The notes: generated by a model not told the origin, from the letters alone. A stretch of DNA of 64,000 nucleotides from Candidatus Oleimmundimicrobium americanum (GCA_002366545.1 DFBH01000074.1:1033-65032), one strand, 5' to 3'. Positions 9,590 through 39,555 are shown, numbered from the stretch's first letter. Translations and numbers: made by a program.

Positions 9590-9681
9590 CCAATTTTCCC
9601 TACAATTTCGCTGTTCTAAACAAAGGAGGACTTTTTATCCCCTTTATTGAATCCATTTGACAGTTATTTCATTTTAAAGGA

Positions 9682-10596
9682 ATGCAAATGAAGTTTAAAA
9701 GAGCAAAAATTATTGTAAACCCGGCTTCAAACCACGGTGAAACCAAAAAGGTCTTCGGTAGAGTTAACGATTTTTTCAAGGGGAAGCTCGACTTCGACTT
9801 GGAGTTAACCGAAAAACCTAAACAGGCCATAGAGATGGCCAAAAAACTTCCCGACTACGATCTCGTCATAGCAGTGGGTGGCGACGGAACAATCTTTGAA
9901 ATAGTTAACGGTTTGGCATTAAGCAATAATCGAGAGACCGCTTTGGGGATTATCCCCACAGGCTCAGGTAACGATTTGGCAAGAATTTTAGGAACGCCAA
10001 AAGACATTACAAGAGCGTGCAATGAAATTTTGAACGGCCACACAAAAATGATCGACCTGGGGCTGGTAAATGGCGTATATTACGCAAATTCTCTCGGCAT
10101 TGGCTTCGACGCTCAAGTGGCTCACACGGCAAATAAGATAAAGGATGAGGTCAAGCGCTCAGGACTTCCTCTCTATTTGACGGCTTTGTTCAAGATACTT
10201 TTTAAAAATTATCACCCTTTTAAAATCTCAATAAAAATTGAGGAGGAGGATTTCTTCACGAAAAAGATCGTCCTGATTGTGGCGAATAATGGGATAAGTT
10301 ATGGTGGGGGCTTTAAAATCACGCCAAAAGCCAGAAACGATGACGGCCTGCTAAATGTTTGTTTGATTGATGAACTTCCGGCCTGGAAAGTCGTCCCCCG
10401 ATTACCCTTCGTGATAATCGGAAAACATGAGTGGATGAAATGCGCTCATACCTACCGAGCAAAAAAAATTATTGTGAGAGCTGAGGAGGAGGTCCTCCCC
10501 GCTCAACTGGATGGGGAATTGATAACGGACAATAACTTTTTAATTGAAATCGTGCCAAGAGCGCTTAAGGTCATCGTATCCAAGGAGGATGGATAA
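9682..10596 (+). CDS. YegS/BmrU-family lipid kinase (diacylglycerol kinase catalytic domain)
   Basis: 'AVGGDGTIFEIVNGL' and 'PTGSGNDLAR' DAGK_cat motifs. The stop overlaps the plsY start (TAATG). Confidence 0.75.
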   Translation: MQMKFKRAKIIVNPASNHGETKKVFGRVNDFFKGKLDFDLELTEKPKQAIEMAKKLPDYDLVIAVGGDGTIFEIVNGLALSNNRETALGIIPTGSGNDLARILGTPKDITRACNEILNGHTKMIDLGLVNGVYYANSLGIGFDAQVAHTANKIKDEVKRSGLPLYLTALFKILFKNYHPFKISIKIEEEDFFTKKIVLIVANNGISYGGGFKITPKARNDDGLLNVCLIDELPAWKVVPRLPFVIIGKHEWMKCAHTYRAKKIIVRAEEEVLPAQLDGELITDNNFLIEIVPRALKVIVSKEDG

Positions 10597-15324: not shown

Positions 15325-17142
15325 CTACTTAGCAATATATATAGCATCGAACGGACAGTGCTGCATACAAATGCCACATTTTACACATTTGGTCACATCT
15401 ATTTCGTGTGGCTGTTTCTTTTCCCCGGTAATCGCTCCCATTGGACAATGTTTCTTACAAACTCCACATCCTCTGCACACATTCTCTTTAATTACATAGG
15501 CAATGAGCTCAGAACATACCCCCGCGCGACATCTTCCCTCTTTAACATGCTCCTCAAACTCTTCTTGAAAATACTCAAGCATCGTAAGAATTGGGTTGGG
15601 AGCAGTTTGCCCTAAACCACAAAGCGATGCGACCTTAACATCTCGAGCTAATTCTTCTAAAAGAACCAATTCCTTTTCGTCGCTCTCCCCCTTGGTCATC
15701 CTTTCAAGCATCTCGAGCATCCGTTTGGTTCCAACCCGACAAGGAACACATTTCCCACAGGATTCCTTCTGGGTAAAAGTCAAAAAGTATTTTGCTAAAT
15801 CAACTACACAGGAGCTTTCATCCATAACAACCATTCCGCCTGAGCCCACAATGGCTCCCGTTTGAGTCAAGGACTCATAGTCTATTGGCGTATCAAGAAA
15901 CTCAGTCGGGAGACACCCGCCGGATGGCCCGCCTATTTGAACCGCTTTGAACTTTTTATCGTCCTTTATCCCACCACAAATATCAAATATCACTTTTCTA
16001 AGAGTGGTACCCATGGGCACCTCGACCAATCCGCCGTTTTTGACCTTTCCTGTAACCGCAAAAATTTTGGTACCCTTGCTTTTCTCCGTCCCAATGGCAG
16101 CAAACTTGTCAGCACCGTTCGTTATTATCCAGGCAATATTTGCAAGCGTTTCAACGTTGTTAATGTTGGTGGGCTTACCCCAAAGCCCGGACTGTGCCGG
16201 GAAAGGCGGACGAATCCGAGGCATGCCTCTTTTACCCTCAATTGAAGCCATGAGGGCCGTCTCTTCTCCACAGACGAAAGCCCCGGCTCCTTCCTTCATT
16301 TTAATTTCAAAATCAAAAGAGCTGCCAAGAATGTTTTTGCCCAAAAAGCCCTTCTTTTTAGCATGCTCAACCGCAATCTTAAGTCGCTTAACAGCCAAAG
16401 GATATTCGGCCCTAACATATATATATCCCTCGGACGCACCAATAGCGTAAGCAGCTATCATCATTCCTTCAAGCACGCTGTGAGGATCGCCCTCCAAGAC
16501 ACTCCTATCCATAAATGCTCCGGGATCTCCTTCATCAGCATTACAAATAACATACTTCACAGCCCCGGGGGCTTTTTGGGCAAAACTCCACTTAAGACCG
16601 GTGGGAAATCCTGCCCCACCGCGACCCCTTAAGCCAGAGGCTTTAACTTCTTCAACAACCTCTTCGGGGGACATCTTGTTTAAAACCTTCTCAAGCGCTT
16701 TATATCCGCCACTCTCGATATAGTCATCGATTTCTTCGGGATTAATTTGTCCGCAGTTTCTAAGAACTATCCTATTCTGTTTTTGATAAAAGTTTATATC
16801 CTTATAAAGAGAAATCTTTTTACCGGTCCGCGAATCTTCATAGAGCAAATCCTCTACAACCTCGCCGCCAATTAAATGCTCCTCGACGATTCGAGACACG
16901 TTCTCCGCGGAAACCGTAGGATAAAAAACTCCCTCGGGCTGAATAACAACGATCGGACCCTGCTGACAAAAACCGTGACACCCGGTTTGAACAATATCAA
17001 TTTCAGAAATTTTCCGCTTTTTAAACTCCTCTTTAAAAGCGGATTTCACTTTTTCAGAGCCACTTAAAACACAGCCGGTCCCCGTACAAATAAAAACCTT
17101 GTTTTGCTTTTCTTTAACTTTTACTTTGACCACAATTTTCAC
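15325..17142 (-). CDS. NuoF-like NAD(P)H-binding flavoprotein subunit with C-terminal 2x[4Fe-4S] (HydB/HndC/FdhB type)
   Basis: 'GLRGRGGAGFPTGLKW' FMN/NADH motif, 'ESCGKCVPCRVGT' N3 cluster motif, an N-terminal thioredoxin-like Cys4, and two CxxCxxCxxxCP motifs at the C-terminus. Confidence 0.8.
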   Translation of the reverse strand: MKIVVKVKVKEKQNKVFICTGTGCVLSGSEKVKSAFKEEFKKRKISEIDIVQTGCHGFCQQGPIVVIQPEGVFYPTVSAENVSRIVEEHLIGGEVVEDLLYEDSRTGKKISLYKDINFYQKQNRIVLRNCGQINPEEIDDYIESGGYKALEKVLNKMSPEEVVEEVKASGLRGRGGAGFPTGLKWSFAQKAPGAVKYVICNADEGDPGAFMDRSVLEGDPHSVLEGMMIAAYAIGASEGYIYVRAEYPLAVKRLKIAVEHAKKKGFLGKNILGSSFDFEIKMKEGAGAFVCGEETALMASIEGKRGMPRIRPPFPAQSGLWGKPTNINNVETLANIAWIITNGADKFAAIGTEKSKGTKIFAVTGKVKNGGLVEVPMGTTLRKVIFDICGGIKDDKKFKAVQIGGPSGGCLPTEFLDTPIDYESLTQTGAIVGSGGMVVMDESSCVVDLAKYFLTFTQKESCGKCVPCRVGTKRMLEMLERMTKGESDEKELVLLEELARDVKVASLCGLGQTAPNPILTMLEYFQEEFEEHVKEGRCRAGVCSELIAYVIKENVCRGCGVCKKHCPMGAITGEKKQPHEIDVTKCVKCGICMQHCPFDAIYIAK

Positions 17143-17922
17143 CTATTTTAGATAAGAATGACAATAAAGTACTTCATTTCTCAACACTCTGACGGTCTTT
17201 ACAACATCCATTAATTCTTTATCAAAAGGATTCGCGATAACGGCATCCAAACCAACGGTTGCAAGCATGGCAAGATACGTTCTATCCAGAAGCGGTTTAG
17301 TCTCAGCGGGTGCTCCATTTGAAATATTGCTTAATCCGACGACCGTCTTAAGCGGAGGGTCATTTAATTGCCTGAACATCTTTATCGCCTCAATTGCCTC
17401 CTGAGCTTGTTCTTGAGCAACGGCGATCGGAAGGATTAACGGATCGAGATAGAGATTTTCCATCGGAACCCCTTTCTCCGCCATCTTCGCCATGATATCA
17501 ACCGCTATCGCCATCCTTTCATTGGCGTCACGCGGTATCCCTGTTTCAGTCATGGTCAATCCGATGACTTTTGCATTATATTTTGCGGCTAAACCCATCA
17601 TCGTCTCAAGCCGGTTTGGTTCCCCTGAAGCAGAGTTTATAATTGGCTGTTTCTTGCAAACCTTTAACCCCGCTTCCATGGCTTCAGCATTAGTGGTATC
17701 CAAACAAAGTGTTACATCAGCCACCTCTTGAACAGCATTTACAATCCACTCCATCATCTCCGTACCATTTTTGCGAGCCGGTCCTATGTTTATGTCTAAA
17801 ACGTTCGCTCCGGCCTCAATCTGAGCAACAGCTAAATCCTGAATCGGTTTTGGATCACGATCTTTCATCGCAGAACCGATTACTTTTGAAATAACATTAA
17901 TTTTCTCACCAATAATTAACAT
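17143..17922 (-). CDS. acsE: methyltetrahydrofolate:corrinoid iron-sulfur protein methyltransferase AcsE (pterin-binding)
   Basis: 'MLIIGEKINV...RDP.PIQ...LDINIGPA...LCLDTTN...INSAS...LYLDPLILP' is near-colinear with Moorella AcsE (from memory). Length is 259 aa. Confidence 0.75.
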   Translation of the reverse strand: MLIIGEKINVISKVIGSAMKDRDPKPIQDLAVAQIEAGANVLDINIGPARKNGTEMMEWIVNAVQEVADVTLCLDTTNAEAMEAGLKVCKKQPIINSASGEPNRLETMMGLAAKYNAKVIGLTMTETGIPRDANERMAIAVDIMAKMAEKGVPMENLYLDPLILPIAVAQEQAQEAIEAIKMFRQLNDPPLKTVVGLSNISNGAPAETKPLLDRTYLAMLATVGLDAVIANPFDKELMDVVKTVRVLRNEVLYCHSYLK

Positions 17923-17937
17923 TTAAACCTCCTGTTT

Positions 17938-18453
17938 TTAATTAAGTTTTTTCTCTTTAGCTCTTGTGTTACGTATAATTTCTCGAGCTTTTTTGGGCGT
18001 CAAACGCCCATGCGTTTCGTCATTTATCCTCATAACAGGGGCAAGACTACAAGCTCCCAAACATGCAACCGACCTTAAAGTAAATTGACGATCATGAGTT
18101 GTTTCCCCTTCTTCAATGCCTAATTCATCAGCCAACGCTTCCGTTATTCTTTTTGCGCCACTTACATAACAAGCCGTCCCATGACACACAGAAATCACGT
18201 TTTTGCCGACCGGAACAAGAGAGAACTGCGAATAAAAAGTGGCTACACCGTAAAGCTGGCTTAATGGAATCCCTGTCGCCTCCGAGACGCAGTCCAAAAC
18301 ATCTTCGGAAAGATAACCGAATTTTTTCTGTATCTCCTGAAGTAGTGGAATGGTTGCTCCAGCATAATTTTTGTACTTTTCAACGATATCTAAAATTTCA
18401 GAGTTATTAAATTCTCCACCATTTAATTTTTCACACTTACATAGACACGCCAT
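17938..18453 (-). CDS. NuoE-like [2Fe-2S] thioredoxin-like subunit (HydC/HndA type) with extra N-terminal Cys cluster
   Basis: 'CHGTACYVSGA...VACLGACSLAPV' is the NuoE 2Fe-2S motif. The N-terminus carries 'MACLCKCEK'. Confidence 0.75.
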   Translation of the reverse strand: MACLCKCEKLNGGEFNNSEILDIVEKYKNYAGATIPLLQEIQKKFGYLSEDVLDCVSEATGIPLSQLYGVATFYSQFSLVPVGKNVISVCHGTACYVSGAKRITEALADELGIEEGETTHDRQFTLRSVACLGACSLAPVMRINDETHGRLTPKKAREIIRNTRAKEKKLN

Positions 18454-18480: not shown

Positions 18481-19266
18481 TTAACTTACAGCTTTTCCAA
18501 GTTCTTCCTTAAGAGAATTAATTTTCTCTACAAATATCTTATCCAAATCATAGGACGACTTACCTTCTATGTCAGCCAAACGAACCTTTTGGCTTTCATT
18601 TATCCAGCCAATTACGGGAGCATTGGGAATTATGCTCCTTGCTTTCTCCTCCATACATCTCTTCTCGCCCTTTCGAACTTTATTTAACACTAAAAAAATC
18701 TTTTCAATGCCTATGTCCTTTGCAAGTTTATTTATGGACTTTGCTGTTTCCAAACTGCGAAGGCCGGGCTCAACCACTATGACGAAGACATCAACCGATT
18801 CAGCCGTTCCTCTTCCCAAATGCTCGATGCCCGCCTCCATGTCCATGATGACCACTTCATCGCGTTCCACAAGCAAACTCTTAATCAAACTCCGCAAGAG
18901 AGTACTTTCCGGACAGATACAACCGCTTCCACCTTTTTCTACGCCACCTAAGACCAAAAGCTTTATCCCCAAAAGTTCTATTCCCAACTTTTCGGGAAGA
19001 TCGTCCACTTTAGGATTTATGCGAAAAAAACTGCCCACGGTACCCGGCTTCGCCCCGGTGCGCTCTTCAATCAGCTTCTTCATCTGTGAAATTGGCACAA
19101 TCTCCTGCTGTATTTTGGAAACACCGGCGATGGCAGAAGCAAGATTAGCATCAGGGTCTGCATCAACCGCTAAAACTTTATAACCCTTGTCTTTATACAG
19201 TCTGGCAAGCGCTCCTGCAATGGTCGTCTTTCCGACACCGCCCTTGCCCGTAATTGCTATCTTCAT
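18481..19266 (-). CDS. cooC: CooC-type nickel-insertion accessory ATPase (second copy)
   Basis: 'MKIAITGKGGVGKTT' deviant Walker A, a MinD/ParA-like fold, and an internal Cys motif. Confidence 0.75.
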   Translation of the reverse strand: MKIAITGKGGVGKTTIAGALARLYKDKGYKVLAVDADPDANLASAIAGVSKIQQEIVPISQMKKLIEERTGAKPGTVGSFFRINPKVDDLPEKLGIELLGIKLLVLGGVEKGGSGCICPESTLLRSLIKSLLVERDEVVIMDMEAGIEHLGRGTAESVDVFVIVVEPGLRSLETAKSINKLAKDIGIEKIFLVLNKVRKGEKRCMEEKARSIIPNAPVIGWINESQKVRLADIEGKSSYDLDKIFVEKINSLKEELGKAVS

Positions 19267-19289: not shown

Positions 19290-19530
19290 TACAACCCGGC
19301 CTTACGGCCTTGATAGCTGATGGCCCAAACTATAGACAATCAGCAAATTAAAAAATAAAAGTGAAAAAAGAAAAACTATAGATAAAAATTTAAAATTGAA
19401 AACCCAGCCCTAAAGGGCAGCCCTTTAAACCAGCTTTCAAAATCAGCCCTTAAAGCAGCCCCTATCCGTTAGCCAAAAGCTAAAACATAAAGACCAATAA
19501 CTAATAGCCATCTGCTATATGCCATCAGCC
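19290..19530. repeat. low-complexity intergenic block with 5 tandem ~13-nt CAGCCCTTAAAG-like units
   Basis: CCCAGCCCTAAAGGG/CAGCCCTTTAAAC/CAGCTTTCAAAAT/CAGCCCTTAAAG/CAGCCCCTATCCG at about 19397-19460, flanked by GCTGATGGCC / GCCATCAGCCATTAGCC words. Confidence 0.5.
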
Positions 19531-19531
19531 A

Positions 19532-20590
19532 TTAGCCAAAATACTTCTCTCTCAAAGCCGAAGAAAGCTCTGACGTTAATCTGATGCTCTTTTCCGCCAA
19601 TTCTTCGATCATTGAGCCTGTACCACAATTTGGTGTAATTAAGCTCGCTTCAAGAAGCTTTGTTTTATTTATTCCCTTGTCGACCAGCAACTGGACTTTA
19701 TCTTCAAACTTATCGAGAATGCCCTCCAAGGTTTCATTCGCTATCGCATCGGGGCTTGGGTAGGTGGATGGGACTATCCCCCAGGCAAGAATTCCACCCC
19801 TATCTAAAAATTTATTTAGTTCCTGTGGGTAAAGGGACATGCTTTCAGTATGATCATATGCATCAAAACTTATAATGTTAACGGTAGTTTCCATTAAAAG
19901 GCTCCAGTCGGTGCGACCGCAACAATGAACGCCGCAAAGACCATCAACCGCATAAAAACACTCATTTAAATAGGAGATAACCTCTTCTTTATTTAATTTT
20001 ATATACGACGAACCGTAAGACTGAAGATAGGGTTCATCAAAAAAGATAACCGTTTTAACATCGGGAACCAATTTTTTAAATTCCCTCTCCTGCCATTTTG
20101 CCTTCATGGTAAGCGTTTTTATTATGGCGTCCCTTAAAAGGTCGTTGTAAAGAACCGCTTGTTTATTTTGGTCCGTAACGGTTAAGCCAAAACTAATCGG
20201 TCCGGTTAACTGGCCCTTGAGCATAACCAAATCACTTGGCAGATGTTTCCTCAATATATCCAACATGGTGTGAAGCCCTCGAGCATAATCAGCAGATATC
20301 GCGAAATAATCCAAATCTTCAGCCAGAAATCTATCGTAGAACTTCTCAAGCTCCCAAACCAAATTTTCTCTTGCTTCCAAATGAATTTTCTTCTTTTCTT
20401 CATCTATCCTTACCCCAGGCATGCCCTCTGAAATCTGAACACACATACTCTCCTTAAAAGAGAGGTTGGGGAGTTGAGGCCACACCGGAATCTGCGGAGT
20501 ATTTTTAAGAACCACTTCACAAGCTTTAACTGCATCGATATGTGGCATGCTACCAACGGTCATCGGAAGACAACGAGGTTTAAACTCCAT
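19532..20590 (-). CDS. MetE C-terminal-domain-like / URO-D superfamily zinc methyltransferase-like protein
   Basis: Candidate Zn ligand pattern His/Cys/Glu/Cys: 'GVHCCG', 'FFDEPYL', 'TPNCGTG'. Length is 352 aa. It lies last in the hdrC-hdrB operon. Confidence 0.45.
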   Translation of the reverse strand: MEFKPRCLPMTVGSMPHIDAVKACEVVLKNTPQIPVWPQLPNLSFKESMCVQISEGMPGVRIDEEKKKIHLEARENLVWELEKFYDRFLAEDLDYFAISADYARGLHTMLDILRKHLPSDLVMLKGQLTGPISFGLTVTDQNKQAVLYNDLLRDAIIKTLTMKAKWQEREFKKLVPDVKTVIFFDEPYLQSYGSSYIKLNKEEVISYLNECFYAVDGLCGVHCCGRTDWSLLMETTVNIISFDAYDHTESMSLYPQELNKFLDRGGILAWGIVPSTYPSPDAIANETLEGILDKFEDKVQLLVDKGINKTKLLEASLITPNCGTGSMIEELAEKSIRLTSELSSALREKYFG

Positions 20591-21463
20591 TTACAAAATC
20601 CCCCTTTTTCTCAAAGCCGGAAAGGGGCTGACCGTAAGACGTTGCAAACCAACGTCTTTGGAGCTCCCTCCCAAAGCGAGGCCCATAAGCTGACTAAAAT
20701 ACACTATGGGTACACCATATTTAGCATTATATTTCTTTTCAATCTCCTTTTGTCTCATATCAAGATTAGTCTGGCAGAGAGGGCAAGCCACAACAACCAT
20801 GTCCGCCTCAAGCTTTTTTATCTCCTCCAACAAATCATGACAGAGCTTGACGACAACATCTGTTCTGCTTAACGCAAAACTTACCCCGCAACATTCGGTT
20901 TTATAAGGCCAGTCTAAACTTTTGGCTCCTAAGGACTCCATTATGTTATCCATACTCTGTGGATCTTCAACCACGTCAAAATTAGCAACCCCGGGCGGTC
21001 TGGTTAGCATACAACCATAATAGCAAACGACCTTAAGTCGTTTTAAAAATTTATTTGTCACTTCCTCTATTTTTTTAAGACCAATTTCTTTGATAAAAAA
21101 TTCAACTATATTAAAAACTTCAATCCCGTCATCATATTTCTCACCCACAACCTCCTCGGCCCTCACCTTAAGCTCTTCATTCTCCCTCATTTCCTTGATA
21201 GCGGTTTTAAGCCGCCATGAACAAGCAATGCACGGTACCAACAATTTCTCAAAACCAGCTTTACGTGCAGAAATTAAAGTATGCAGAGGCAAGGATGTCG
21301 CTAAAAGATGTGAGGTGTTGTGAGCAGAAGATGCGCCGCAACAAATCCAGTCGTCGAGCTCTTGCAATTCAATGCCCAATTTATTGCAAACAAAATTTAT
21401 TGATTCTCCAAACTCTTTTGCGGTTCCATTATAAGAACAACCGGGATATAGACCATATCTCAT
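20591..21463 (-). CDS. hdrB: heterodisulfide reductase subunit B-like (two CCG domains)
   Basis: Two Cys-rich CCG motifs: 'CCGAS...C...C' and 'CYYGC...CCG...CPLCQ'. Confidence 0.75.
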   Translation of the reverse strand: MRYGLYPGCSYNGTAKEFGESINFVCNKLGIELQELDDWICCGASSAHNTSHLLATSLPLHTLISARKAGFEKLLVPCIACSWRLKTAIKEMRENEELKVRAEEVVGEKYDDGIEVFNIVEFFIKEIGLKKIEEVTNKFLKRLKVVCYYGCMLTRPPGVANFDVVEDPQSMDNIMESLGAKSLDWPYKTECCGVSFALSRTDVVVKLCHDLLEEIKKLEADMVVVACPLCQTNLDMRQKEIEKKYNAKYGVPIVYFSQLMGLALGGSSKDVGLQRLTVSPFPALRKRGIL

Positions 21464-22014
21464 TTTGACTCCAACTCTTTCACCTTGGCAAAGATTCGTT
21501 GTACTTCGTTTACGTTTTTAACTTTATGAGGCAGAAGACCAAACTTACCTTTAAAAAACAAAGGCAACCCCGTCACCACATCCTTCATAATTTGTTTGGT
21601 TTTCAGCTTAATTAACATCACCAAACCAATCTCATAAATTCGCCCAAACTTTTCAACTAAGAACAAAAAAGATTCGTTAAAAGCGGCTATTTCCGGTATA
21701 GGATTTTTATACTTTTCCCGGCCGCCAATTGTCCTTGCGGCATCGGCCACCTTAACAAAATCGAGGTTTTGAGGACATCGCGTCATACAGGTTTGGCAAG
21801 AAAGACAAAACCATATCGATTGATCTTTTAACACTAAATCCTTCTGCCCCAACTGAATAGTCCTAATCAACTGATGCGGCTTGTATCTCATTGCATACGC
21901 CGTAGGACAACCAAGCGAGCATTTCTTGCACTGGTAGCACAGGTAAACATCCTCACCACACTCTTCTTTTATCTGTTCCGCAAATGTTTTATTTATCTTT
22001 GCTATTTCTCTCAT
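21460..22014 (-). CDS. hdrC: heterodisulfide reductase subunit C-like (2x[4Fe-4S])
   Basis: 'CYQCKKCSLGCP' and 'CLSCQTCMTRCP' motifs. The start is most likely the ATG at 22014, with AAAGAGG 5 nt upstream. The TTG start at 22050 in the ORF track lies inside an intergenic repeat motif. Confidence 0.65.
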   Translation of the reverse strand: MREIAKINKTFAEQIKEECGEDVYLCYQCKKCSLGCPTAYAMRYKPHQLIRTIQLGQKDLVLKDQSIWFCLSCQTCMTRCPQNLDFVKVADAARTIGGREKYKNPIPEIAAFNESFLFLVEKFGRIYEIGLVMLIKLKTKQIMKDVVTGLPLFFKGKFGLLPHKVKNVNEVQRIFAKVKELESK

Positions 22015-22055
22015 AAAAACCTCTTTAGTCGGTAGTCTGTTTTTAGTCAAATTAA

Positions 22056-22300
22056 AAAATAAAAATTTATAACGATATAGAAAAATTTAAAATTTAAAAC
22101 CAAATCACAAAAGATAAACTTCTTAAAATGTTTTTAAAAACTTTTTTAATTTTTATCTATAGTTTTTCGTTTTTCATTCTCCATTTTTCACTTAACTCTA
22201 CCCCATACCCGTTTTTGCTCTCTGCTCTAACTATATTTTTCCTGGCAGCTGACAGCTGGTGGCTGTTTTTACCCTATACCCTTATACCCGTTACCTTTAT
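22056..22300. repeat. low-complexity AT-rich intergenic block upstream of hdrC with shared word modules
   Basis: TTAAAATTTAAAA words, CTCTCTGCTCTAAC, CCCTATACCCTTATACCCGTTACC (shared with other blocks), and the GTCGGTAGTC module at the hdrC 5' end. Confidence 0.45.
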
Positions 22301-23218
22301 TTAGGGTCTGGGCAAAAGGCCCGCCTTCTCAACTATCTCCGGCACAATCTCTTCCCACTCAATAGCCATAATGTGTACGCCCGCCACACCTTTTATCTCT
22401 TTAACTTGATCGATAATATCTATACAAATGTTTACGCCTTCTTCTTTAGCTTTTTCTTTTCCGGCAACAGTCATCCGCTCAACAATTTTGTCGGGAACAT
22501 CCATCCCCGGCACATTGTTCTTCATATATTTAGCCATACCTGCAGATTTCAAAGGAGCAACACCGGCAAGTATGAAAACTTTCTCGTGGAGACCAAGCTC
22601 CCGAACCATTTCCATCCACTTTGAAAACTTTTCAACGTTATAAACAACTTGCGTCTGAACAAAGTCAATACCGGCTTTGACTTTTTTTGCAAGACGTAAC
22701 ACTCTGAATTCAAAAGGCTCGGAAAAGGGATTTTCAGCCGCCCCTATAAAGAAGTGAGGCTCTACTTTTATCTCCTCGCCACATTGAAATTTCTTTTCAT
22801 CCCTCATGTCCTTAACCATCTTAATAAGCTGAATGGAATCCAAATCAAAAACATTTTTTGACTGGGGATGATTGCCAAATTTTTGATGGTCCCCCGTGAG
22901 ACAGAGAAGATTCTTTACCCCCAAAGCCGAAGCCCCTAAAAGATCACTTTGTATCGCTATCCGATTCCTGTCGCGACAGGTCATTTGAATTATGGGCTCG
23001 ATACCCCTCGATGCCAACATGCTACCGGCAGCAATTGAAGACATCCGGACAATTGCCGTCTGACAGTCGGTTATGTTAACCGCATCAGCATAGCCTTTTA
23101 AAGTTTCAGCCTTCTTATAAACAACTTCAGCACTGACACTTTTGGGGGGACCGAGCTCAGCGGTTACCGCAAAATGTCCCGCACATAAAATTTTCTCAAG
23201 ATTGCTTCCCGATTTCAC
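22301..23218 (-). CDS. metF: 5,10-methylenetetrahydrofolate reductase MetF
   Basis: TIM-barrel MTHFR family signature: 'ELGPPK...ADAVNITD...MTCRDRN...LLGA..LGVKNLLCLTGD'. Confidence 0.85.
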   Translation of the reverse strand: MKSGSNLEKILCAGHFAVTAELGPPKSVSAEVVYKKAETLKGYADAVNITDCQTAIVRMSSIAAGSMLASRGIEPIIQMTCRDRNRIAIQSDLLGASALGVKNLLCLTGDHQKFGNHPQSKNVFDLDSIQLIKMVKDMRDEKKFQCGEEIKVEPHFFIGAAENPFSEPFEFRVLRLAKKVKAGIDFVQTQVVYNVEKFSKWMEMVRELGLHEKVFILAGVAPLKSAGMAKYMKNNVPGMDVPDKIVERMTVAGKEKAKEEGVNICIDIIDQVKEIKGVAGVHIMAIEWEEIVPEIVEKAGLLPRP

Positions 23219-23883
23219 AGCTTCATATCCTCCCTTACAATCTTTCTTGGTCCACCGTCACGACCGGTTGACCAATCTTTTGGCGGTAATATCTCAGTTA
23301 AATCATCGAGTTTCCCAAGCGTTTTCAACCTATCGTAAATAAGTTGCCAAGCGCAATCTACCTCGGGGTCAACTTCACATTTTCCATCTTGGGAACCGCC
23401 ACACGGTCCGTTCAAAAGACTCTTGGAGCATCTAACAATGGGACAAATTCCACCGGTTTTATCAAGTACACAATTACCACAAGCTCCACACCGTTCAGAC
23501 CAAACCCCTTGTTCCTCAGGTAAACCTAAAAAAGTGGTATTGACAGCAGGATACACGATAACTTTCGGGAAACGTTCCACAAGAGTTTGGACGCCAATTC
23601 CACAAGCCATCGAGAGAACCGCCTCACAAGCTTCAATTTTATCCTTCAGCTCGTCGACAAATTCCCACTCACACTGACGAAGGGGAGTTTGTTCCAGTAT
23701 CTCAATTGGCTTATTTTCCTTATTTCTCGCCATCTTTATTGCTGATGAGAGGATGCTTACCTCCTTATCCCCGCCCGCCATACAGACAGCAACACAGGTG
23801 CCACATCCGGCGATGAAAATCTTCTTGTGGTCAGCAATCATATCAAGGATCTCTTGCATCGGTTTTCTTTCTCCAACAATCAT
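23215..23883 (-). CDS. metV: MetV (MTHFR C-terminal-like zinc-ribbon/FeS partner of MetF)
   Basis: 'AGCGTCVAVCMAGG' and a C-terminal Cys cluster 'CGACGNC...CPIVRC...CGGSQDGKCEV'. It is coupled to metF by a 4-nt overlap. Confidence 0.7.
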   Translation of the reverse strand: MIVGERKPMQEILDMIADHKKIFIAGCGTCVAVCMAGGDKEVSILSSAIKMARNKENKPIEILEQTPLRQCEWEFVDELKDKIEACEAVLSMACGIGVQTLVERFPKVIVYPAVNTTFLGLPEEQGVWSERCGACGNCVLDKTGGICPIVRCSKSLLNGPCGGSQDGKCEVDPEVDCAWQLIYDRLKTLGKLDDLTEILPPKDWSTGRDGGPRKIVREDMKL

Positions 23884-24299
23884 TCTTCCGCCCTCCCGGC
23901 ATTGGGTCCCAAACTTTTTAAATCTTCATAAAAAGTAGATAGTGTTCGTGTAAACTTAACCCCATTGGAAGGAGATAGGTAATACATCTGCACTCTTTCT
24001 TCTTCAATACTAATTTCTTTCAAAATATTTTTTATATAAGCTAACCTTGCTTCAGCTCTTAAGTTTCCCCTTAAAAATTGACAAGCTTCCTTGTGACAAG
24101 CATAAATTACAACACCATCGCCTTCTTCCAATGCCCTCATGATGTGAATGCTTTCAATCTTTCCTGAGCATGGAACCTTTATCATGCGCACGCTCTCCGG
24201 ATAAACAAACCCAGACTTAATTGCCATATCAGCCGATAGTAATCCAGAGTGCTCACAATAAAAAACGGTTATTTTTGGCTTAAAATCTCTCTTCGTCAA
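23880..24299 (-). CDS. mvhD: MvhD/FlpD-like hydrogenase iron-sulfur subunit
   Basis: 'ITVFYCEHSG...VPCSGKIE...VIYACHKEAC' is the MvhD family Cys pattern. Confidence 0.75.
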   Translation of the reverse strand: MTKRDFKPKITVFYCEHSGLLSADMAIKSGFVYPESVRMIKVPCSGKIESIHIMRALEEGDGVVIYACHKEACQFLRGNLRAEARLAYIKNILKEISIEEERVQMYYLSPSNGVKFTRTLSTFYEDLKSLGPNAGRAEE

Positions 24300-25927
24300 C
24301 CCGCTTCACCTACCACATCACTTAACTGCCCGATAATTTGAGCATTGGTATAAAGAGGAAGCTCTATGGCCATAACGGGGCATTCACTTGCGCATATCCC
24401 ACACGATTGGCACGCTATCGGCACCACTTTTGCCGTCCCTTCCTCCTGGTCAATAATTATCGCCCCATGAGGGCACGTTCTAACACAAGTAAGACAGAGA
24501 ATACACCTATCCGAATTTATTTTTGCGGACGTTAAATCCAGCTCAATTTCTCCTTTTGATAAAAACGAGAGAATCTCTCCCGCCGTACCCCTTGCTTCGG
24601 AAAGTGTTTCATCAATATTTTGCGGCAGCCGACATCCCCCAACAAAAAATATCCCCTTTCTGGATGATTTAGTCGGCAAAATCTTGACATTATCCTCTTG
24701 AAAAAACCCATTTAAATCAAGGTCTACTGAAAGCAATTTAGCTAACCCTTCAAAACTTTTGCCGGGCATCATCTTCTCGCCTACAACCAATAAATCACTT
24801 TCAAAAACCAATTCTTCGTGAGGATAATCTTCATTTATTAAAAGAATTTCAACGGCGTTGTTTAAAAACTTAATTTCCGGTTTTTCAGCGTACTTGAAAA
24901 ATAAAATACCCGCCTCACGAGCCCTCTTATACAACAACTCTCCCCCGTTGAAGGAAACTTTCAAATCTTTACAAAAACAAATCACATCGGAGCTAAACTT
25001 TTCTTTTATAAGCAAAGCCTGCCTTAAAAGAGCTCGCGTTGATATTTTTAAATCCTCATCGACCAAATCAGCCAAGAAACATATGCGTTGAGACAACTTC
25101 TCATCTGAAACCAATCTTTTTTCCAATTCTTTTTGTCCAATAATCAAGGATTTGGAATTTTCGCCAAGCTTCCAAACGGGAAGAACAAACTCATATCCCA
25201 CAGCAACAACAATTGCCCCAACTTCCAAGGTCAATTCCTGCGCGCCTTCAATTTTAACGGTAAACCCTCCCGCGTTTCCTCTTAAGTCAACTAAATTTGA
25301 GGAAAGAATAACCTTTATTCTTTCATTTTTTTTCAAGGTCTCAACCTTATCTCTTGTCCAATTCTTTAAATTTCCAACCTCAGCGGCCCCACCGCCTAAA
25401 TGGGACTTCTCCTCCACCAAAATTACGCTCAAGCCTCCCTCGGCCAAAGTAAGAGCTGTTTCAATTCCGGCAATACCTCCCCCGAGAACAAGAACTTCTC
25501 GTTTTAATGACACTTTTTGGATTTCAACCGGTTCTTGCGTTTCAACCCACTTTGCCGCCTTAATTATTAAAGCAACCGCCTTTTTTGTAGCCTCCGATTT
25601 ATCTCCACAGGCGACAACCGCTTCATTAAGATTTGCAAAAGTAATTAAATACGGATTTAATCCCATCTTTTTTAAAGAATCTCTAAAAACCGGTTCTTTT
25701 ATCCTTAAACCACAACCGGCAACAACCACCTTAGATAGTTTGTTCTTCTTTAAAAATTTTTCAAAATCGTTCATTTCCCCGGGGAAAAACGAGGAAGGAC
25801 ATTTAAAACAAACAAACCCCAAGGCACCGAGACTTGAGCACGCTTCATCGAGACCCAAAACTTTCCCCGGTTTACCTTCGAAACCATATATAAATATGCC
25901 CGTTTTAGAAATCTTCTTTGTCATCAA
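24296..25927 (-). CDS. hdrA: HdrA-like FAD-dependent oxidoreductase with C-terminal 2x[4Fe-4S] ferredoxin domain
   Basis: Central 'VLVLGGGIAGIETAL' FAD motif and C-terminal 'CILCLTCVRTCP...CQSCGICASECP'. The ATG follows a GAGG RBS. Confidence 0.7.
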   Translation of the reverse strand: MMTKKISKTGIFIYGFEGKPGKVLGLDEACSSLGALGFVCFKCPSSFFPGEMNDFEKFLKKNKLSKVVVAGCGLRIKEPVFRDSLKKMGLNPYLITFANLNEAVVACGDKSEATKKAVALIIKAAKWVETQEPVEIQKVSLKREVLVLGGGIAGIETALTLAEGGLSVILVEEKSHLGGGAAEVGNLKNWTRDKVETLKKNERIKVILSSNLVDLRGNAGGFTVKIEGAQELTLEVGAIVVAVGYEFVLPVWKLGENSKSLIIGQKELEKRLVSDEKLSQRICFLADLVDEDLKISTRALLRQALLIKEKFSSDVICFCKDLKVSFNGGELLYKRAREAGILFFKYAEKPEIKFLNNAVEILLINEDYPHEELVFESDLLVVGEKMMPGKSFEGLAKLLSVDLDLNGFFQEDNVKILPTKSSRKGIFFVGGCRLPQNIDETLSEARGTAGEILSFLSKGEIELDLTSAKINSDRCILCLTCVRTCPHGAIIIDQEEGTAKVVPIACQSCGICASECPVMAIELPLYTNAQIIGQLSDVVGEAG

Positions 25928-25980
25928 AACCTCATGTGTCCCTGTTTTTGATTTCCATGTTCTTCTCTGCTCGAAAAACT

Positions 25981-27054
25981 TTAACTAAAACTCGCAAACA
26001 TCTTTGTAACTTCTGCAACCGCTGCCTTTCCGTGAACCATCGATTCCCCAATATCTTTTGGCCCCTGGCAAGTCCCCGCTAAAAAAACACCGGGAACATT
26101 TGAAAGGTTTGAAAAATAATCTCGTCCCTTATAAAAACCGTACTCATCCTGATCGATTCCAAAAAGGTCAGCCAGAAATTTTGCATCATCTCGGGGAGAC
26201 ATCCCAACGGATAAAACTACGAGGTCAAACTCCCTCTGAACAACCTCGCCCGTCTCATTGTCCAAACATTTAACATGTAAAACACCAGAGTCGGAATATC
26301 CGTAAACCTTTGATGGCAAATTTCTTGCAAACTTTATCCCCATCTCCTCACAACTTTTGCGAAGACCCGAAAAATCTTTGCCGGTTGGCTGAATATCCAT
26401 ATAAAAAATCGTGATATTTGAATCGGGAATTTCAGACTTAATTAGTTTTGATAGTCTAAGCGCATAGGGGCAGCATACCTTGGAACAATAGCCCCGACCT
26501 ATACTCTCATCTCTACTCCCGACGCACTGAAAAAAAGCAATTTTCTTTGGAATTGCTCCATCAGTTAACCGTCTAATTTTCCCGTCTACCCGGAAAGCTC
26601 TCTCGAGATCAATAGCGGTAATGACATTTTTATACTTTCCGTATCCATATTCTTTTTTTTCTTCTGCGTTAAAGAACGTATAACCCGTTGCAATTACTAT
26701 CGCTCCAGCCTTTAACGTCAATTCCTCAAAAGATGATTCCTTCCCGGTAGTATGAGATATTCGCAGTTCAAAATCCCCCGGCTTGCCCGAGAAAGAAACA
26801 ACTTTAGAGCCCATCCAGACTTTTATCTTGGGGTGTTGATAAGCCTTCAAGGTATCTTCATCGGCCAAGCACACCAAACATTTATTGCACTTCTCCGTGG
26901 CTTTACACGCAAAGTTTACTGCGTGTCCCCCAAGTTGAGTCTCCCTCTCGATAACGTGAACTGCAAAACCCGCATCAGCCAGAGTTATCGCGACATTTAT
27001 GCCGGCAATTCCGCCACCGATGATGACTACTTCTTTTGAGCCCATTTTGCCCAT
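25981..27054 (-). CDS. hdrA: HdrA-like FAD-dependent oxidoreductase (short form, N-terminal Cys cluster)
   Basis: 'VVIIGGGIAGINVAI' FAD motif, 'CNKCLVC', 'CSKVCCPYA'. It ends in TAA, 53 nt upstream of the next hdrA-like gene in a different frame. Confidence 0.7.
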   Translation of the reverse strand: MGKMGSKEVVIIGGGIAGINVAITLADAGFAVHVIERETQLGGHAVNFACKATEKCNKCLVCLADEDTLKAYQHPKIKVWMGSKVVSFSGKPGDFELRISHTTGKESSFEELTLKAGAIVIATGYTFFNAEEKKEYGYGKYKNVITAIDLERAFRVDGKIRRLTDGAIPKKIAFFQCVGSRDESIGRGYCSKVCCPYALRLSKLIKSEIPDSNITIFYMDIQPTGKDFSGLRKSCEEMGIKFARNLPSKVYGYSDSGVLHVKCLDNETGEVVQREFDLVVLSVGMSPRDDAKFLADLFGIDQDEYGFYKGRDYFSNLSNVPGVFLAGTCQGPKDIGESMVHGKAAVAEVTKMFASFS

Positions 27055-27072: not shown

Positions 27073-28422
27073 TTATGCGCTTCGACTTTTAAGATAAGCG
27101 GGGATATCTCCGGCCTCCCGTGGGCCAACTTCTATTTTCCAATCCGGGAGTTCTTCTTCCAGTTCACCGCTTATTTGAGCTACGCATCCCGGTATTATCA
27201 ATTTTCTGTGTTTAACTTTGTCGGTAATCCCACAACGCTTCATGAACGGCCCGATACTTTCGGGCACAAATTTACCGGCTCCCCAAGCAGTTAAAACCGA
27301 TAATCCTTCCACGTCCATTATGCAAATCCAAGATGGAATTTTGCTCGCCTCAACCTCACCTGAAACGGTGAAATAAGTTAAGGAGAAATTGGTGGTAAGA
27401 AGCACCGGGGAATCCTCATCCGGTTCCCCGATGGGATAGATTCCCTCTTCAACCTGCATTGGCTTCTGTGGATCGGTATAGATATTTTGCCTTAAGACAT
27501 ACAGTGGAAGTGCCTTCCAGGCTTCGAGGTCGCTTAAGACGATAATCCCTGCATATTTCATGATACCAACGCCGGCAGCCACCGCTTCCATGTAAGGATC
27601 ATCATACATCTCACAAGGAAAGGTTATTATCGGATACCCAAGGGGTTTAAATTTTTTCTTCAAAGCCGCACGCCTTATAAAAGTAGCATCTCTTAAACTG
27701 TCTTTTATATTTCTTGAACCGGGGTCCAACACTATATCTTTGATCCCCTGTGCGGTTACTTTTTCTACCAACTCGGAAAGAATGTTTAAATCTTTAGCCG
27801 CAACCGCCAAAGGACAATTCTCCTCTTTGGCAAGGGCAGCCATTTGCTCAAAGTTGCCTTCATTTGCCGCATAAATAAGAGGTTTGGTCTTAGCGCAAAC
27901 CGAAAGAGCAGCCTTCATCATCTCGGAATTGTCGGTTATTAACACCAAAGGAAACTCGGTTCCCATGGCTTTCTTAACAAGCTCGACAAATTTAGCCGAA
28001 TCATTTGAAGACGATTTAACTGCCACCAAATCAGCCCGAAGAAATTGACCTACTCTCTCAAATTGAGAACTCTTTAACTGAGCAAGTTTTTCACCGATTT
28101 CCGACTCGCTCATTCCATCATCTACAAGAACAGCAAAGCCCGGCTGATGATAAAAGGTTTTTTCGTGACGAAAAAGCACCGCCTCCTCACCAATTTTTAA
28201 GGCCTTATCGCCAACACCTATCGTAACAAGGCGGATAGGAGGAGCCGAAGCCTCGGATAGCTCGGCTTTGGTTTCTTCGGATACATAAGGACACGCATCC
28301 AATTGTGCTTTTCCCATCGCAAGTTTCATGGCAAAGGCAAGACAAGTGGGAACACCACATTCCCCGCAATTTTTTTGAGGTAATTTTTTGTAAATATCAA
28401 GTCCGGTTAACGCCATATACAT
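27073..28422 (-). CDS. acsC: corrinoid iron-sulfur protein large subunit AcsC (CdhE-like)
   Basis: N-terminal 'CGECGVPTCLAFAMKLA...CPY' [4Fe-4S] motif characteristic of AcsC. Length is 449 aa. RBS is AAAGGAGAG. Confidence 0.85.
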   Translation of the reverse strand: MYMALTGLDIYKKLPQKNCGECGVPTCLAFAMKLAMGKAQLDACPYVSEETKAELSEASAPPIRLVTIGVGDKALKIGEEAVLFRHEKTFYHQPGFAVLVDDGMSESEIGEKLAQLKSSQFERVGQFLRADLVAVKSSSNDSAKFVELVKKAMGTEFPLVLITDNSEMMKAALSVCAKTKPLIYAANEGNFEQMAALAKEENCPLAVAAKDLNILSELVEKVTAQGIKDIVLDPGSRNIKDSLRDATFIRRAALKKKFKPLGYPIITFPCEMYDDPYMEAVAAGVGIMKYAGIIVLSDLEAWKALPLYVLRQNIYTDPQKPMQVEEGIYPIGEPDEDSPVLLTTNFSLTYFTVSGEVEASKIPSWICIMDVEGLSVLTAWGAGKFVPESIGPFMKRCGITDKVKHRKLIIPGCVAQISGELEEELPDWKIEVGPREAGDIPAYLKSRSA

Positions 28423-35635: not shown

Positions 35636-36157
35636 TTAAACGATTTCTATGGCATCGGCTTCACATACGGCCAAACACTCGCCACATTTGGTGCACTTTT
35701 TATTCTTAATGTAGTAGGGTTTATTGTCCGAAAGATACGAAACCATCTTCTCTCCCACAATTGCATCCTCAGGACAAACCTCTTTACAAGCTCCGCAAAT
35801 CGTACATTTCTCGGAATTTATCTGGTAACTCACAATAGTTTCACAAGATTTTTGAGCGCAATACTTGTCCTTTATGTGTTCTTCGTATTCATTTTTAGAT
35901 GAGGACAATGAGTCCTTTACAAAAGTAGCCGCGTCCTTACCCAGTTTGCATCGAGCAGTATCCACGATATAAGAAGATATTTCATCGAGCAAAACAATGT
36001 CTTCTTCTTCTCCTTTTCCATTTGTAATTCTCTCTAAAACATCGATCATTCGCACCGTTCCAAGCATACAGGGCAGGCACTTACCGCACATCTTATCCTT
36101 GGCAAATCCCTTTAAGAATTCAAGTACTATCAAGACCGGGCAACCATCGCTGCTCAT
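35636..36157 (-). CDS. stand-alone NuoF C-terminal-like FeS protein (N3-type 'CGKCLPC' motif + 2x[4Fe-4S] ferredoxin)
   Basis: 'MCGKCLPCMLGT' plus 'CTICGACKEVCP' and 'CTKCGECLAVCE'. It is colinear with the C-terminal 170 aa of the adjacent NuoF-like protein. Confidence 0.6.
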   Translation of the reverse strand: MSSDGCPVLIVLEFLKGFAKDKMCGKCLPCMLGTVRMIDVLERITNGKGEEEDIVLLDEISSYIVDTARCKLGKDAATFVKDSLSSSKNEYEEHIKDKYCAQKSCETIVSYQINSEKCTICGACKEVCPEDAIVGEKMVSYLSDNKPYYIKNKKCTKCGECLAVCEADAIEIV

Positions 36158-39511: not shown

Positions 39512-39555
39512 TTCTATCTCCTTTCGAAACCAAATTTTTATATCTTTCCGCAACT

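Follow-up and report, generated by a model that had tools for sequence, protein, structure and literature searches.

The stretch of DNA analysed here (the window, 64,000 nt from the Actinomycetota genome of Candidatus Oleimmundimicrobium americanum) contains a metF-hdr region in which hdrA appears twice and a gene for a 352-aa, MetE-like protein follows hdrB. The question raised by this locus is whether the 352-aa protein is a partner of HdrBC with a chemistry of its own or an enzyme of a type already known. In our reading, the region is most probably a segment of the methyl branch, in which a split-HdrA, Hdr-type methylene-THF reductase and a MesB-type methionine synthase are encoded side by side. 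Because MesB is a known type and the hdrA pair is a split form of a known HdrA, we regard the locus as an ordinary variant and not as new chemistry.

Organization of the methyl-branch segment

The segment from acsC to the 352-aa gene is enclosed in a 33-kb Wood-Ljungdahl cluster and lies on the minus strand, where every open reading frame of the initial annotation was recovered at its reported position. The order starts with acsC (27073-28422; NF003195, E = 3.9e-193; PF03599 and PF04060), followed by two genes that match HdrA models, hdrA-short (25981-27054; 357 aa) and hdrA-long (24296-25927; 543 aa from TTG 25927). Next are mvhD for the [2Fe-2S] subunit (23880-24299; PF02662, E = 3.7e-36), metV (23215-23883; PF12225, E = 2.9e-40) and metF for the catalytic subunit of methylene-THF reductase (22301-23218; PF02219, E = 5.3e-43). 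After an AT-rich spacer of ~250 nt (22015-22300, assigned to no strand) come hdrC (21460-22014; TIGR03290, E = 1.5e-18), hdrB with two CCG domains (20591-21463; two stretches matching PF02754; TIGR03288, E = 8.7e-47) and the 352-aa gene (19532-20590), which we call mesB on the basis of the fold, residues and homologue neighbourhoods of its product. The cluster that holds acsC and mesB also contains acsD (38573-39553), and the window further encodes RACo, a cooC-type Ni-insertion ATPase (18481-19266, minus strand; PF01656) and an acsE of the normal type (17143-17922).

Most junctions in the segment are tight. Overlaps of 4 nt join hdrA-long to mvhD, where the mvhD start shares TTGA with the hdrA-long stop, mvhD to metV, and metV to metF, where the GTG start of metF overlaps the metV stop in GTGA. 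The TAA stop of hdrB directly abuts the ATG of mesB. As proposed earlier, mesB is almost certainly part of the hdrCB transcript. A terminator-like hairpin with a T-run, found in a consensus scan, is located ~100 nt 3' of the mesB stop (19409-19429, minus strand). For hdrC, the mechanical open reading frame begins at TTG 22050; the most likely start is ATG 22014, giving 184 aa, because it is preceded by an AAGAGG ribosome-binding site and the HdrC orthologue of relative L081 is also 184 aa long.

The spacer between metF and hdrC contains a hairpin 3' of metF (~22242-22259) and two copies of a ~50-nt AT-rich element, one at 22048-22099 and an inverted one at 22143-22193. Repeat comparison places a third copy 3' of mesB and upstream of cooC (19344-19395, assigned to no strand), while the number of matches expected by chance is 0. 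The repeat block noted beside hdrC-hdrB is therefore real, but the proposal that hdrC-hdrB form a separate operon found no support, since metF is followed only by a hairpin that lacks a T-tract and the spacer is missing in relative L083. Relative L081 keeps only the metF-proximal part of it.

All six protein families of the Hdr-type (type IV) methylene-THF reductase, namely MetF, MetV, MvhD, HdrA, HdrB and HdrC, are encoded inside 20591-27054, as they are clustered in Moorella thermoacetica (HdrCBA-MvhD-MetVF; Mock et al. 2014, as cited in PMC5861303) and Sporomusa ovata (Kremp et al. 2022, PMC9430772). From these sequences, hdrA-short, hdrA-long, mvhD, metV, metF, hdrC and hdrB would together encode such a reductase, with both the complex and its activity being predicted. 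The window differs from the known system in that the HdrA modules are separate genes (357 and 543 aa), the Moorella-type GltD/NAD(P)H domain is absent, and the order is hdrA-hdrA-mvhD-metV-metF-hdrC-hdrB instead of hdrCBA-mvhD-metVF. The initial annotation was right to call this order rearranged with respect to Moorella, but the arrangement is common and already published. Unrelated MAGs also have a split hdrA pair ahead of mvhD-metV-metF and place hdrC-hdrB after these genes, and the order hdrA-mvhD-metVF-hdrCB was described for Actinobacteria of the Hakuba serpentinite (Merino et al. 2020, PMC7325909), which share the phylum, gene order and Wood-Ljungdahl context of the window. In the available part of the Hakuba paper (PMC7325909), neither a split hdrA nor a methionine synthase gene after hdrB is mentioned, and a count of 'methionine synthase' in its text gives 0.

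The split hdrA pair

The two hdrA genes are separate, as had been claimed. The TAA stop of hdrA-short (25983-25981) is followed by 53 nt before TTG 25927, and the two starts are offset by 1127 nt (27054 - 25927), which equals 2 modulo 3, so the genes are in different frames. Sec readthrough does not apply because there is no in-frame TGA. The start of hdrA-long is probably ATG 25924 (542 aa), with GAGG upstream, rather than TTG 25927 (543 aa).

The two proteins differ in domain content. HdrA-short consists of a TrxR-like FAD module only, and the N-terminal domain and both ferredoxin domains, inserted and C-terminal, are absent; alignment of homologues shows a QCVGSRD...CSxxCC [4Fe-4S] motif and an additional C47-x5-C53-x2-C56-x2-C59 motif. 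In hdrA-long, the N-terminal domain of HdrA is present but has no cluster cysteines, the FAD Rossmann module has an invariant GxGxxG but no CVGSRD/CC cluster, and the C-terminus is a 2x[4Fe-4S] ferredoxin domain with eight cysteines (C474-C515). Neither protein is a methanogen-type HdrA, which in 5ODC has ~650 aa with an N-terminal [4Fe-4S] domain and inserted and C-terminal ferredoxin domains. HdrA-short, which aligns with 5odc_A residues 144-235 and 317-560, lacks all three, and in hdrA-long, which aligns with residues 53-235 and 373-647, there is no inserted domain, no CxC cysteines in the N-terminal domain and no CVGSRD/CC cluster.

In the sulfur-oxidising Hdr-like system, sHdrA is a homodimer. 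Like hdrA-short, the sHdrA of Hyphomicrobium denitrificans (PDB 6TJR) is a minimal HdrA with no more than the TrxR-like FAD module, and hdrA-short aligns with 6tjr_A over its full length (E = 5.6e-47); it differs in being paired with a longer HdrA paralogue beside metVF and in having the extra four-cysteine motif. In sulfate reducers, QmoA and QmoB are adjacent short and long HdrA paralogues that act together. No Qmo model was among the best 25 NCBIfam matches of either HdrA-like protein, while HdrC matched qmoC weakly (NCBIfam, E = 6e-16), and the context in the window is methylene-THF reduction, in contrast to APS reduction for Qmo.

In domain content, the pair resembles the two-module HdrA that has been described in the enzymes from S. 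ovata and M. thermoacetica (PMC9430772). In S. ovata, aa 1-382 form an extra TrxR-like module and aa 383-942 an HdrA with no inserted ferredoxin domain (PMC9430772), and judged by this published domain description, the window pair matches: the second TrxR-like FAD module and the absence of the inserted ferredoxin domain are both found, distributed over two polypeptides. In contrast to the Moorella and Sporomusa HdrA, hdrA-long has lost the N-terminal and the CVGSRD/CC cluster cysteines. We conclude that the hdrA pair is a split form of the two-module HdrA, which is a single polypeptide in S. ovata, Moorella and a related actinobacterium and the product of two adjacent genes here. Presumably, a heterodimer of hdrA-short and hdrA-long takes the place of the HdrA homodimer; in it, hdrA-short would carry FAD, the conserved [4Fe-4S] site and the extra four-cysteine motif, and hdrA-long would carry the FAD fold and the 2x[4Fe-4S] ferredoxin domain.

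The two reading frames might instead stem from a single hdrA that a frameshift or a faulty assembly has interrupted, and relative L083 indeed encodes both modules as one 1004-aa protein, with hdrCB fused as well. We consider such an artefact or pseudogene extremely unlikely. The split is kept in independent assemblies and lineages, both in the relatives L081, L082 and L088 and in the distant L085, L086 and L087, and each downstream gene begins at a start codon of its own, which in the window is preceded by a GAGG ribosome-binding site. Moreover, both window proteins span the FAD domain, i.e., they represent different HdrA paralogue modules and not two halves of one. The fused L083 protein is only 28-35% identical to the two window proteins and retains the cluster motifs that are missing from hdrA-long.

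Assignment of the 352-aa protein

The 352-aa protein had been described as a MetE-like zinc methyltransferase, and this description stands, although by fold and motifs and not by sequence profiles. Pfam, NCBIfam and PDB sequence searches returned no match; at E <= 10, Pfam gave nothing but a sub-threshold DUF3006, with no Meth_synt_1 and with no match to PF01717 or PF01208, the profiles suggested in the initial annotation. The AlphaFold model (pLDDT 90.3) is a MetE-like barrel whose best fold matches are the MetE catalytic barrels 1t7l, 4l6h and 3bq5 (E ~1e-8, TM 0.58-0.63), followed by the MtaA-like 4ay7 (a Methanosarcina mazei methyltransferase, E = 1.7e-7), MesD (3rpd) and UROD 3gw3. The relationship to MetE is visible only in the fold and motifs. 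The protein is not a canonical MetE (PF01717 / TIGR01371), as it has no profile match, no folate-binding Meth_synt_1 domain and half the MetE length.

Among 38 homologues, P16, D185, P187, H222, C224, D243 and C322 are invariant and S14 is nearly so. We propose from this pattern that H222, C224, D243 and C322 form the zinc site and that S14 and D185 bind homocysteine. In the His-Cys-Glu-Cys zinc site put forward earlier, the DEP motif is not a ligand: its D185 would be the homocysteine-binding aspartate, and the ligand would be D243.

These features correspond to MesB, the core methionine synthase (core-MetE) family of Wood-Ljungdahl organisms, for which the reference is Dehalococcoides mccartyi cbdbA481 / DET0516 (Deobald et al. 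2020, PMC7005905; Price et al. 2021, PMC7857596). In DET0516, zinc is bound by residues 214, 216, 235 and 311 (H-C-D-C, with Asp in place of the MetE Glu) and homocysteine by residues 15, 69 and 177 (PMC7857596). Counted from the His, the conserved positions are at -37, +2, +21 and +100 in the window protein and at -37, +2, +21 and +97 in DET0516, and S15, D177, D235 and C311 of the Dehalococcoidales homologue L074 have the DET0516 residue numbers. As in Dehalococcoides MesB (~345 aa; ~340-350 aa in the family), there is a single MetE-like (beta/alpha)8 barrel without the N-terminal folate domain, with His-x-Cys...Asp...Cys zinc ligands and the homocysteine-binding Ser and Asp, and the host encodes CoFeSP (AcsC and AcsD), with frequent Wood-Ljungdahl clustering of the homologues. 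The window protein is ~45% identical to the Dehalococcoidia members and scores 300-326 bits against nine of them, including L074, which serve as proxies for DET0516, whereas the family threshold of Price et al. is at least 173 bits against DET0516 itself (PMC7857596). Homologues carry the source annotation 'methionine synthase'. By its residues and fold, and through the proxy homologues, the protein thus fits the MesB type.

MesB is marked by methyl transfer from methylcob(III)alamin to homocysteine and by no activity on 5-methyl-THF, and the window protein is predicted to behave likewise. On this assignment, the zinc ion would activate the thiol of homocysteine bound by S14 and D185, and the thiolate would then be methylated at the expense of a methyl-corrinoid, giving methionine and Co(I). 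The likeliest such corrinoid is the CoFeSP (AcsC/AcsD) of the same cluster in its methylated form. The acsC product is the predicted methyl donor; even in Dehalococcoides, the physiological donor of MesB is a prediction. The window differs from D. mccartyi in that mesB ends an hdrC-hdrB transcript in a genome with metF and acsE, both of which are absent from D. mccartyi.

The fold search, which also finds 4ay7 (E = 1.7e-7) and UROD 3gw3, and the remark of Price et al. that other corrinoid proteins may be the partners of some MesB paralogues allow two further functions. The protein could be a methylcobamide:thiol methyltransferase of the MtaA/UroD type whose substrate is not homocysteine but another thiol, or it could be an additional CoFeSP:THF methyltransferase. 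Both together appear quite unlikely. The TM scores of these matches are lower than those of the MetE barrels (0.51-0.54 versus 0.58-0.63), PF01208 gives no match, and in place of the His-Cys-Cys zinc site of the MtaA type there is a fourth conserved ligand, an Asp that MesB shares. The H-x-C...D...C ligands with the homocysteine Ser and Asp are the MesB signature, the homologues lie among methionine, SAM or homocysteine genes, and a second CoFeSP:THF methyltransferase would stand beside the normal acsE already present in the window.

Gene neighbourhoods of mesB

We examined homologue loci from 79 genomes of other species with a reach of 6 kb. Methionine-salvage or SAM-cycle genes (MtnA, MTAP, AhcY or MetK) are found on the same strand in 33 of the 79 loci, a metK/ahcY linkage also known for cbdbA481, and CODH/ACS or methyl-branch genes (CooC, CooS, AcsBCD, MetF or similar) in a further 25. 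CooC, near mesB homologues in ~21 of 80 loci, is the commonest neighbour in other phyla. HdrB or HdrC within 6 kb was found in 0/79. Inside the immediate clade (63-83% identity), each of the four relatives examined has mesB either directly against hdrB or hdrCB or overlapping it; the hdrB stop runs straight into the mesB start in the window, L081 and L088, and the two share 4 nt in L083. The hdrB-mesB link is confined to this clade. Neighbourhood analysis, proposed in the initial annotation as a check, thus retained the adjacency within the clade and revealed no conserved linkage to hdrBC beyond it.

The tight hdrB-mesB junctions of the clade could be taken to mean that the zinc enzyme is a partner of HdrBC, namely a methyl- or thiol-transferase that makes or uses up a thiol or disulfide on which the non-cubane clusters of HdrB act, and so lends the MetFV-Hdr complex a new acceptor chemistry, the more so as no HdrB substrate is established for bacterial MetFV-Hdr complexes. 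We find this very improbable. Apart from the missing HdrB and HdrC neighbours in the 79 loci, the nearest relatives outside the clade are in homocysteine/methionine operons, and the order HcyBio, NIL-ferredoxin, mesB is seen in L084, L089, L090 and L091 (51-55% identity). The metF-mesB adjacency persists in other Actinomycetota that have no hdr genes (L009, L042 and L079; metV-metF-(cooC)-mesB). In Desulfobacterota-like loci, the hdr-metVF unit is the same but hdrB is its last gene and mesB is absent. In addition, the zinc- and homocysteine-binding residues of methionine synthase are intact. The earlier suggestion that HdrBC is coupled here to a different methyl acceptor or to thiol chemistry is unsupported, because the protein fits MesB and its homologues outside the clade are never beside hdrBC. 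This outcome is in essence the one that the initial annotation had named as refuting its idea, with the adjacency inside the clade as a reservation. The position of mesB after hdrB indicates membership in a methyl-branch operon and not partnership with HdrBC.

Since the mesB and hdrB or hdrCB coding sequences abut or overlap within the clade, an arrangement described as translational coupling, MesB might dock there on a MetFV-Hdr-MvhD/CoFeSP assembly and channel methyl groups to methionine, or HdrB might service a homocysteine-derived disulfide. We give such clade-specific roles only a slight chance; if true, either would give a bacterial Hdr module a new accessory role.

A probable MesB-type methionine synthase in the Wood-Ljungdahl cluster

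The region is part of a single long Wood-Ljungdahl cluster (44831 down to 12162) whose genes share one orientation, in the order fhs, RACo, cooC, folD, acsD, nuoE/F-like genes, a molybdopterin protein gene, cooS, acsB and acsC (CoFeSP large subunit, 27073-28422). It continues with two hdrA-like genes of 357 aa (hdrA-short, 25981-27054) and 543 aa (hdrA-long, 24296-25927), mvhD (23880-24299), metV (23215-23883), metF (22301-23218), an AT-rich spacer of ~250 nt (about 22051-22300), hdrC (21460-22050), hdrB with two CCG domains (20591-21463) and a gene for a 352-aa protein (19532-20590); cooC, nuoE, acsE, nuoF, a CBS protein gene and fdhA follow. All genes from acsC to the 352-aa gene are on the minus strand, where the initial annotation had placed them, and those from acsC to hdrB were identified with Pfam/NCBIfam, while the 352-aa gene is without a family match.

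The 352-aa protein gave no significant match in Pfam (E ≤ 10), NCBIfam or a PDB sequence search, and neither PF01717 nor PF01208, the models suggested in the initial annotation, matches it. A profile of 38 homologues retrieved only the MesD synthase 3rpd from the PDB, at an insignificant E-value of 0.7. The AlphaFold model of the protein is confident (pLDDT 90.3, pTM 0.90). In a structural comparison it is closest to catalytic barrels from cobalamin-independent methionine synthases (E about 1e-8, TM 0.58-0.63, 12-14% identity), ahead of an MtaA-like methyltransferase, 3rpd (the short synthase MesD) and UROD. These matches bear out the MetE-like fold guessed from the sequence. The family comprises 4126 proteins in a word-indexed search and at least 592 stretches in GTDB species genomes, and the closest relatives are from Actinomycetota, including Candidatus Oleimmundimicrobium at 82% identity. 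Across the 38-member alignment, D185-x-P187, H222, C224, D243 and C322 are invariant and S14 is nearly so.

These residues point to a characterised family. The 'core-MetE' of Dehalococcoides mccartyi (cbdbA481, 343 aa) methylates homocysteine with methylcob(III)alamin, not methyl-THF, as the donor, has H215, C217, D236 and C312 as zinc ligands and shares an operon with metK and ahcY (Deobald et al. 2020, PMC7005905). Price et al. 2021 (PMC7857596) named the family MesB, assigned residues 214, 216, 235 and 311 of D. mccartyi DET0516 to zinc and 15, 69 and 177 to homocysteine binding, and noted that MesB occurs in organisms having AcsC and AcsD, with CoFeSP as the predicted methyl donor. The same residues recur in the window protein, spaced almost as in DET0516: the Ser is residue 14, the Asp precedes the His by 37 positions, and Cys, Asp and the last Cys follow the His at +2, +21 and +100, the last compared with +97 in DET0516. 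It also has the MesB-distinguishing Asp where MetE has Glu. A search seeded with a Dehalococcoidaceae MesB had no named D. mccartyi protein among its best 120 matches; a Dehalococcoidales homologue carries S15, D177, D235 and C311, which is the published DET0516 numbering, and nine Dehalococcoidia homologues match the window protein at 300-326 bits. Several homologues bear the NCBI or JGI name 'methionine synthase'. Judged by residues, fold and these proxy homologues, the 352-aa gene is recognisable as a MesB core methionine synthase (mesB). The DEP motif, which the initial annotation had counted towards a His-Cys-Glu-Cys zinc site, would therefore hold the substrate-binding aspartate (D185), with D243 as the fourth zinc ligand.

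Since the gene has no Pfam/NCBIfam name, an automatic pipeline would label its product a hypothetical protein, and methionine synthesis might go unnoticed; the MesB assignment fills this gap in the annotation of the organism. Among the scanned window ORFs of at least 150 aa, we found neither an HcyBio gene nor a further methionine synthase. The window also contains aspartate kinase and aspartate-semialdehyde dehydrogenase genes (52481-55052, minus strand), which make the precursor for the HcyBio-type homocysteine route. In L085, cooC-cooC-DUF3786 is followed by the gene for a 354-aa protein without a Pfam match (3623-4687), which lies 3 kb upstream of the split hdrA-metVF unit. Because it is only 30% identical to the window MesB (168 bits), it is best classed as a distant MesB-like paralogue.

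A two-module HdrA encoded by two genes

The hdrA-short gene ends with TAA, which is followed by 53 nt to a TTG at 25927, while an ATG at 25924 has a GAGG ribosome-binding site; hdrA-short and hdrA-long are in different reading frames. The hdrA-short product aligns to the HdrA of M. thermolithotrophicus (5ODC) only at residues 144-235 and 317-560, in the thioredoxin-reductase-like FAD module, whereas its alignment with the minimal sHdrA structure 6TJR is full-length; it retains the QCVGSRD...CSxxCC cluster motif. The hdrA-long product aligns to 5ODC residues 53-235 and 373-647, a span that takes in the N-terminal domain as well as the FAD module and C-terminal ferredoxin domain; both the CVGSRD/CC motif and the CxC cysteines at the N-terminus have been lost. 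The inserted ferredoxin domain is absent from both. The two are paralogous modules, not halves of one gene.

This domain architecture is known from characterised Hdr-type reductases. The 942-aa HdrA of S. ovata has an extra TrxR-like module (aa 1-382) before an HdrA without the inserted ferredoxin domain, and the 1487-aa Moorella HdrA has the same layout plus a GltD domain (both as given in Kremp et al. 2022, PMC9430772); Moorella HdrA contains two FAD (Buckel and Thauer). Because the domains agree with these descriptions, the 357-aa and 543-aa products are a split form of the known two-module HdrA, without the GltD domain of Moorella. The hdrA-mvhD-metVF-hdrCB order itself had already been reported in Actinobacteria (Merino et al. 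2020, PMC7325909).

Close relatives and distant MAGs alike keep the pair. It is present in L087; L086 has the order cooS-acsB-acsC-acsE-hdrAs-hdrAl-mvhD-metV-metF-hdrC-hdrB, and in L085 hdrAs-hdrAl-mvhD-metV-metF is followed by a second MTHFR-family gene, a sensor kinase gene and hdrC-hdrB. In L083, a member of the immediate clade, both modules are in one 1004-aa protein (3537-6551) and hdrC-hdrB are fused as well (470 aa, 8592-10004). Every split hdrA-short (window, L081, L087, L085 and L086) has C47, C53, C56 and C59 in a C-x5-C-x2-C-x2-C motif, instead of which the fused L083 protein has the canonical NDCxxC and the inserted ferredoxin domain. These cysteines may ligate an additional [4Fe-4S] cluster, as a substitute for the absent inserted domain. 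Comparing the split, fused and degenerate forms among related genomes reveals the domain boundaries of the two-module HdrA, which are useful for modelling the Hdr-type methylene-THF reductase.

Genomic neighbourhood and proposed role of mesB

The initial annotation had proposed a zinc-dependent methyl- or thiol-transferase coupled to HdrBC. We fetched 80 loci of different species with homologues at 41-48% identity, labelled their ORFs from the window proteins and Pfam-checked clusters, and counted the 79 that contain a full homologue. Same-strand methionine-salvage/SAM-cycle genes (MtnA-like, MTAP-like, AhcY, MetK) lie within 6 kb in 33 loci, resembling the setting described for cbdbA481, and CODH/ACS or methyl-branch genes, typically as cooC-mesB-cooS-acsB-cooC-acsD-acsC, lie within 6 kb in 25; L067 has both and is entered in both counts. 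HdrB or HdrC was found within 6 kb of the homologue in none of the 79; one locus, L055, has hdrCB ~9 kb away. Directly upstream of four homologues with 51-55% identity, of which three carry the label Actinomycetota and one Firmicutes, is a homocysteine-synthesis pair made up of HcyBio (PF01837) and a NIL-ferredoxin gene.

Three further Actinomycetota that possess the pathway (L009, L042 and L079) have acsC-metV-metF-(cooC)-mesB-...-acsE and no hdr genes. Among the loci examined, hdrB-mesB adjacency is confined to the immediate clade, where L081 and L082 (82% identity) and L088 (83%) keep the window gene order and the fused hdrCB of L083 (63%) overlaps mesB by 4 nt. Since the hdr genes are absent from the other Actinomycetota, the simplest reading is that mesB is part of a methyl-branch operon in which they are a variable element. 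A methionine synthase whose link to hdrBC does not extend beyond this clade speaks against the HdrBC-coupled role, leaving a small residual possibility of a clade-specific MesB-Hdr association. The claimed co-transcription with hdrCB is almost certain, the hdrB stop codon directly abutting the mesB ATG.

Gene content, domain content, conserved ligands and neighbourhoods are directly observed; the following scheme is inferred. The HdrA paralogues would pair into a heterodimer that replaces the HdrA homodimer, and this, together with MvhD, HdrBC and MetFV, would reduce methylene-THF; for the electron donor, NADH-linked bifurcation has been proposed in Moorella and a membrane-linked route in S. 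ovata (Buckel and Thauer; PMC9430772). In MesB, a homocysteine thiolate on zinc would attack the methyl-Co(III) of CoFeSP, a transfer predicted for the family (PMC7857596) that would bypass both acsE and methyl-THF. The assignment lends further support to that prediction of CoFeSP as the methyl source; mesB here shares a complete Wood-Ljungdahl cluster with metF and acsE. The initial observation was accurate and its interpretation half right: the MetE-like fold and the predicted co-transcription stand, while the new chemistry read into it gives way to a recognisable MesB and a split form of a known HdrA. None of this changes the current understanding of MesB or the Hdr-type reductase.

Intergenic repeats and other features of the cluster

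The repeat block noted ahead of hdrC is real. An AT-rich element of ~50 nt recurs in intergenic spacers, both directly and inverted (19344-19395, 22048-22099 and 22143-22193; 0 expected by chance), with related matches at 7006-7029 and 7623-7646. Its sequence is not kept in the matching spacer of L081 (82% identity), and the element resembles an intergenic repeat particular to the lineage rather than a conserved site of regulation. A hairpin just 3' of metF is conserved in L081 together with the adjoining sequence, and the metF-hdrC spacer is absent in L083. Rfam at gathering thresholds gave 0 matches to a riboswitch or other known RNA across the whole window, and promoter and terminator scans gave consensus-level matches only.

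Two sets of NuoE/NuoF-like genes (15325-18453 and 35636-38557) are interleaved with the acs genes. In the first, acsE (17143-17922) lies between the nuoE-like and nuoF-like genes, upstream of the CBS gene and fdhA; the second precedes an 849-aa NuoG/molybdopterin protein adjoining cooS. They could encode modules of an NAD-linked formate dehydrogenase or of electron bifurcation. A second 352-aa ORF (13800-14858) was considered as a mesB paralogue and rejected, being the N-terminal part of FdhA: it forms one minus-strand frame with 12162-13787, broken by a TGA at 13800-13802 whose context, DHCARL-[TGA]-HAPTVAGL, is a classic selenocysteine site of formate dehydrogenase. The window FdhA (12162-14858) is probably a selenoprotein of ~898 aa. 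In a 592-aa protein (48608-50386, minus strand), Fe-S motifs and a domain resembling the [FeFe]-hydrogenase large subunit are joined to a GGDEF diguanylate cyclase domain at the C-terminus; this protein may act in signalling as a sensor of redox state or H2. Inteins were observed in two other contigs, one with a LAGLIDADG endonuclease in the acsB of the related actinobacterial L087 (4685-8467, 1260-aa product) and one in a UvrD-type helicase gene of L084 (2551-5757).
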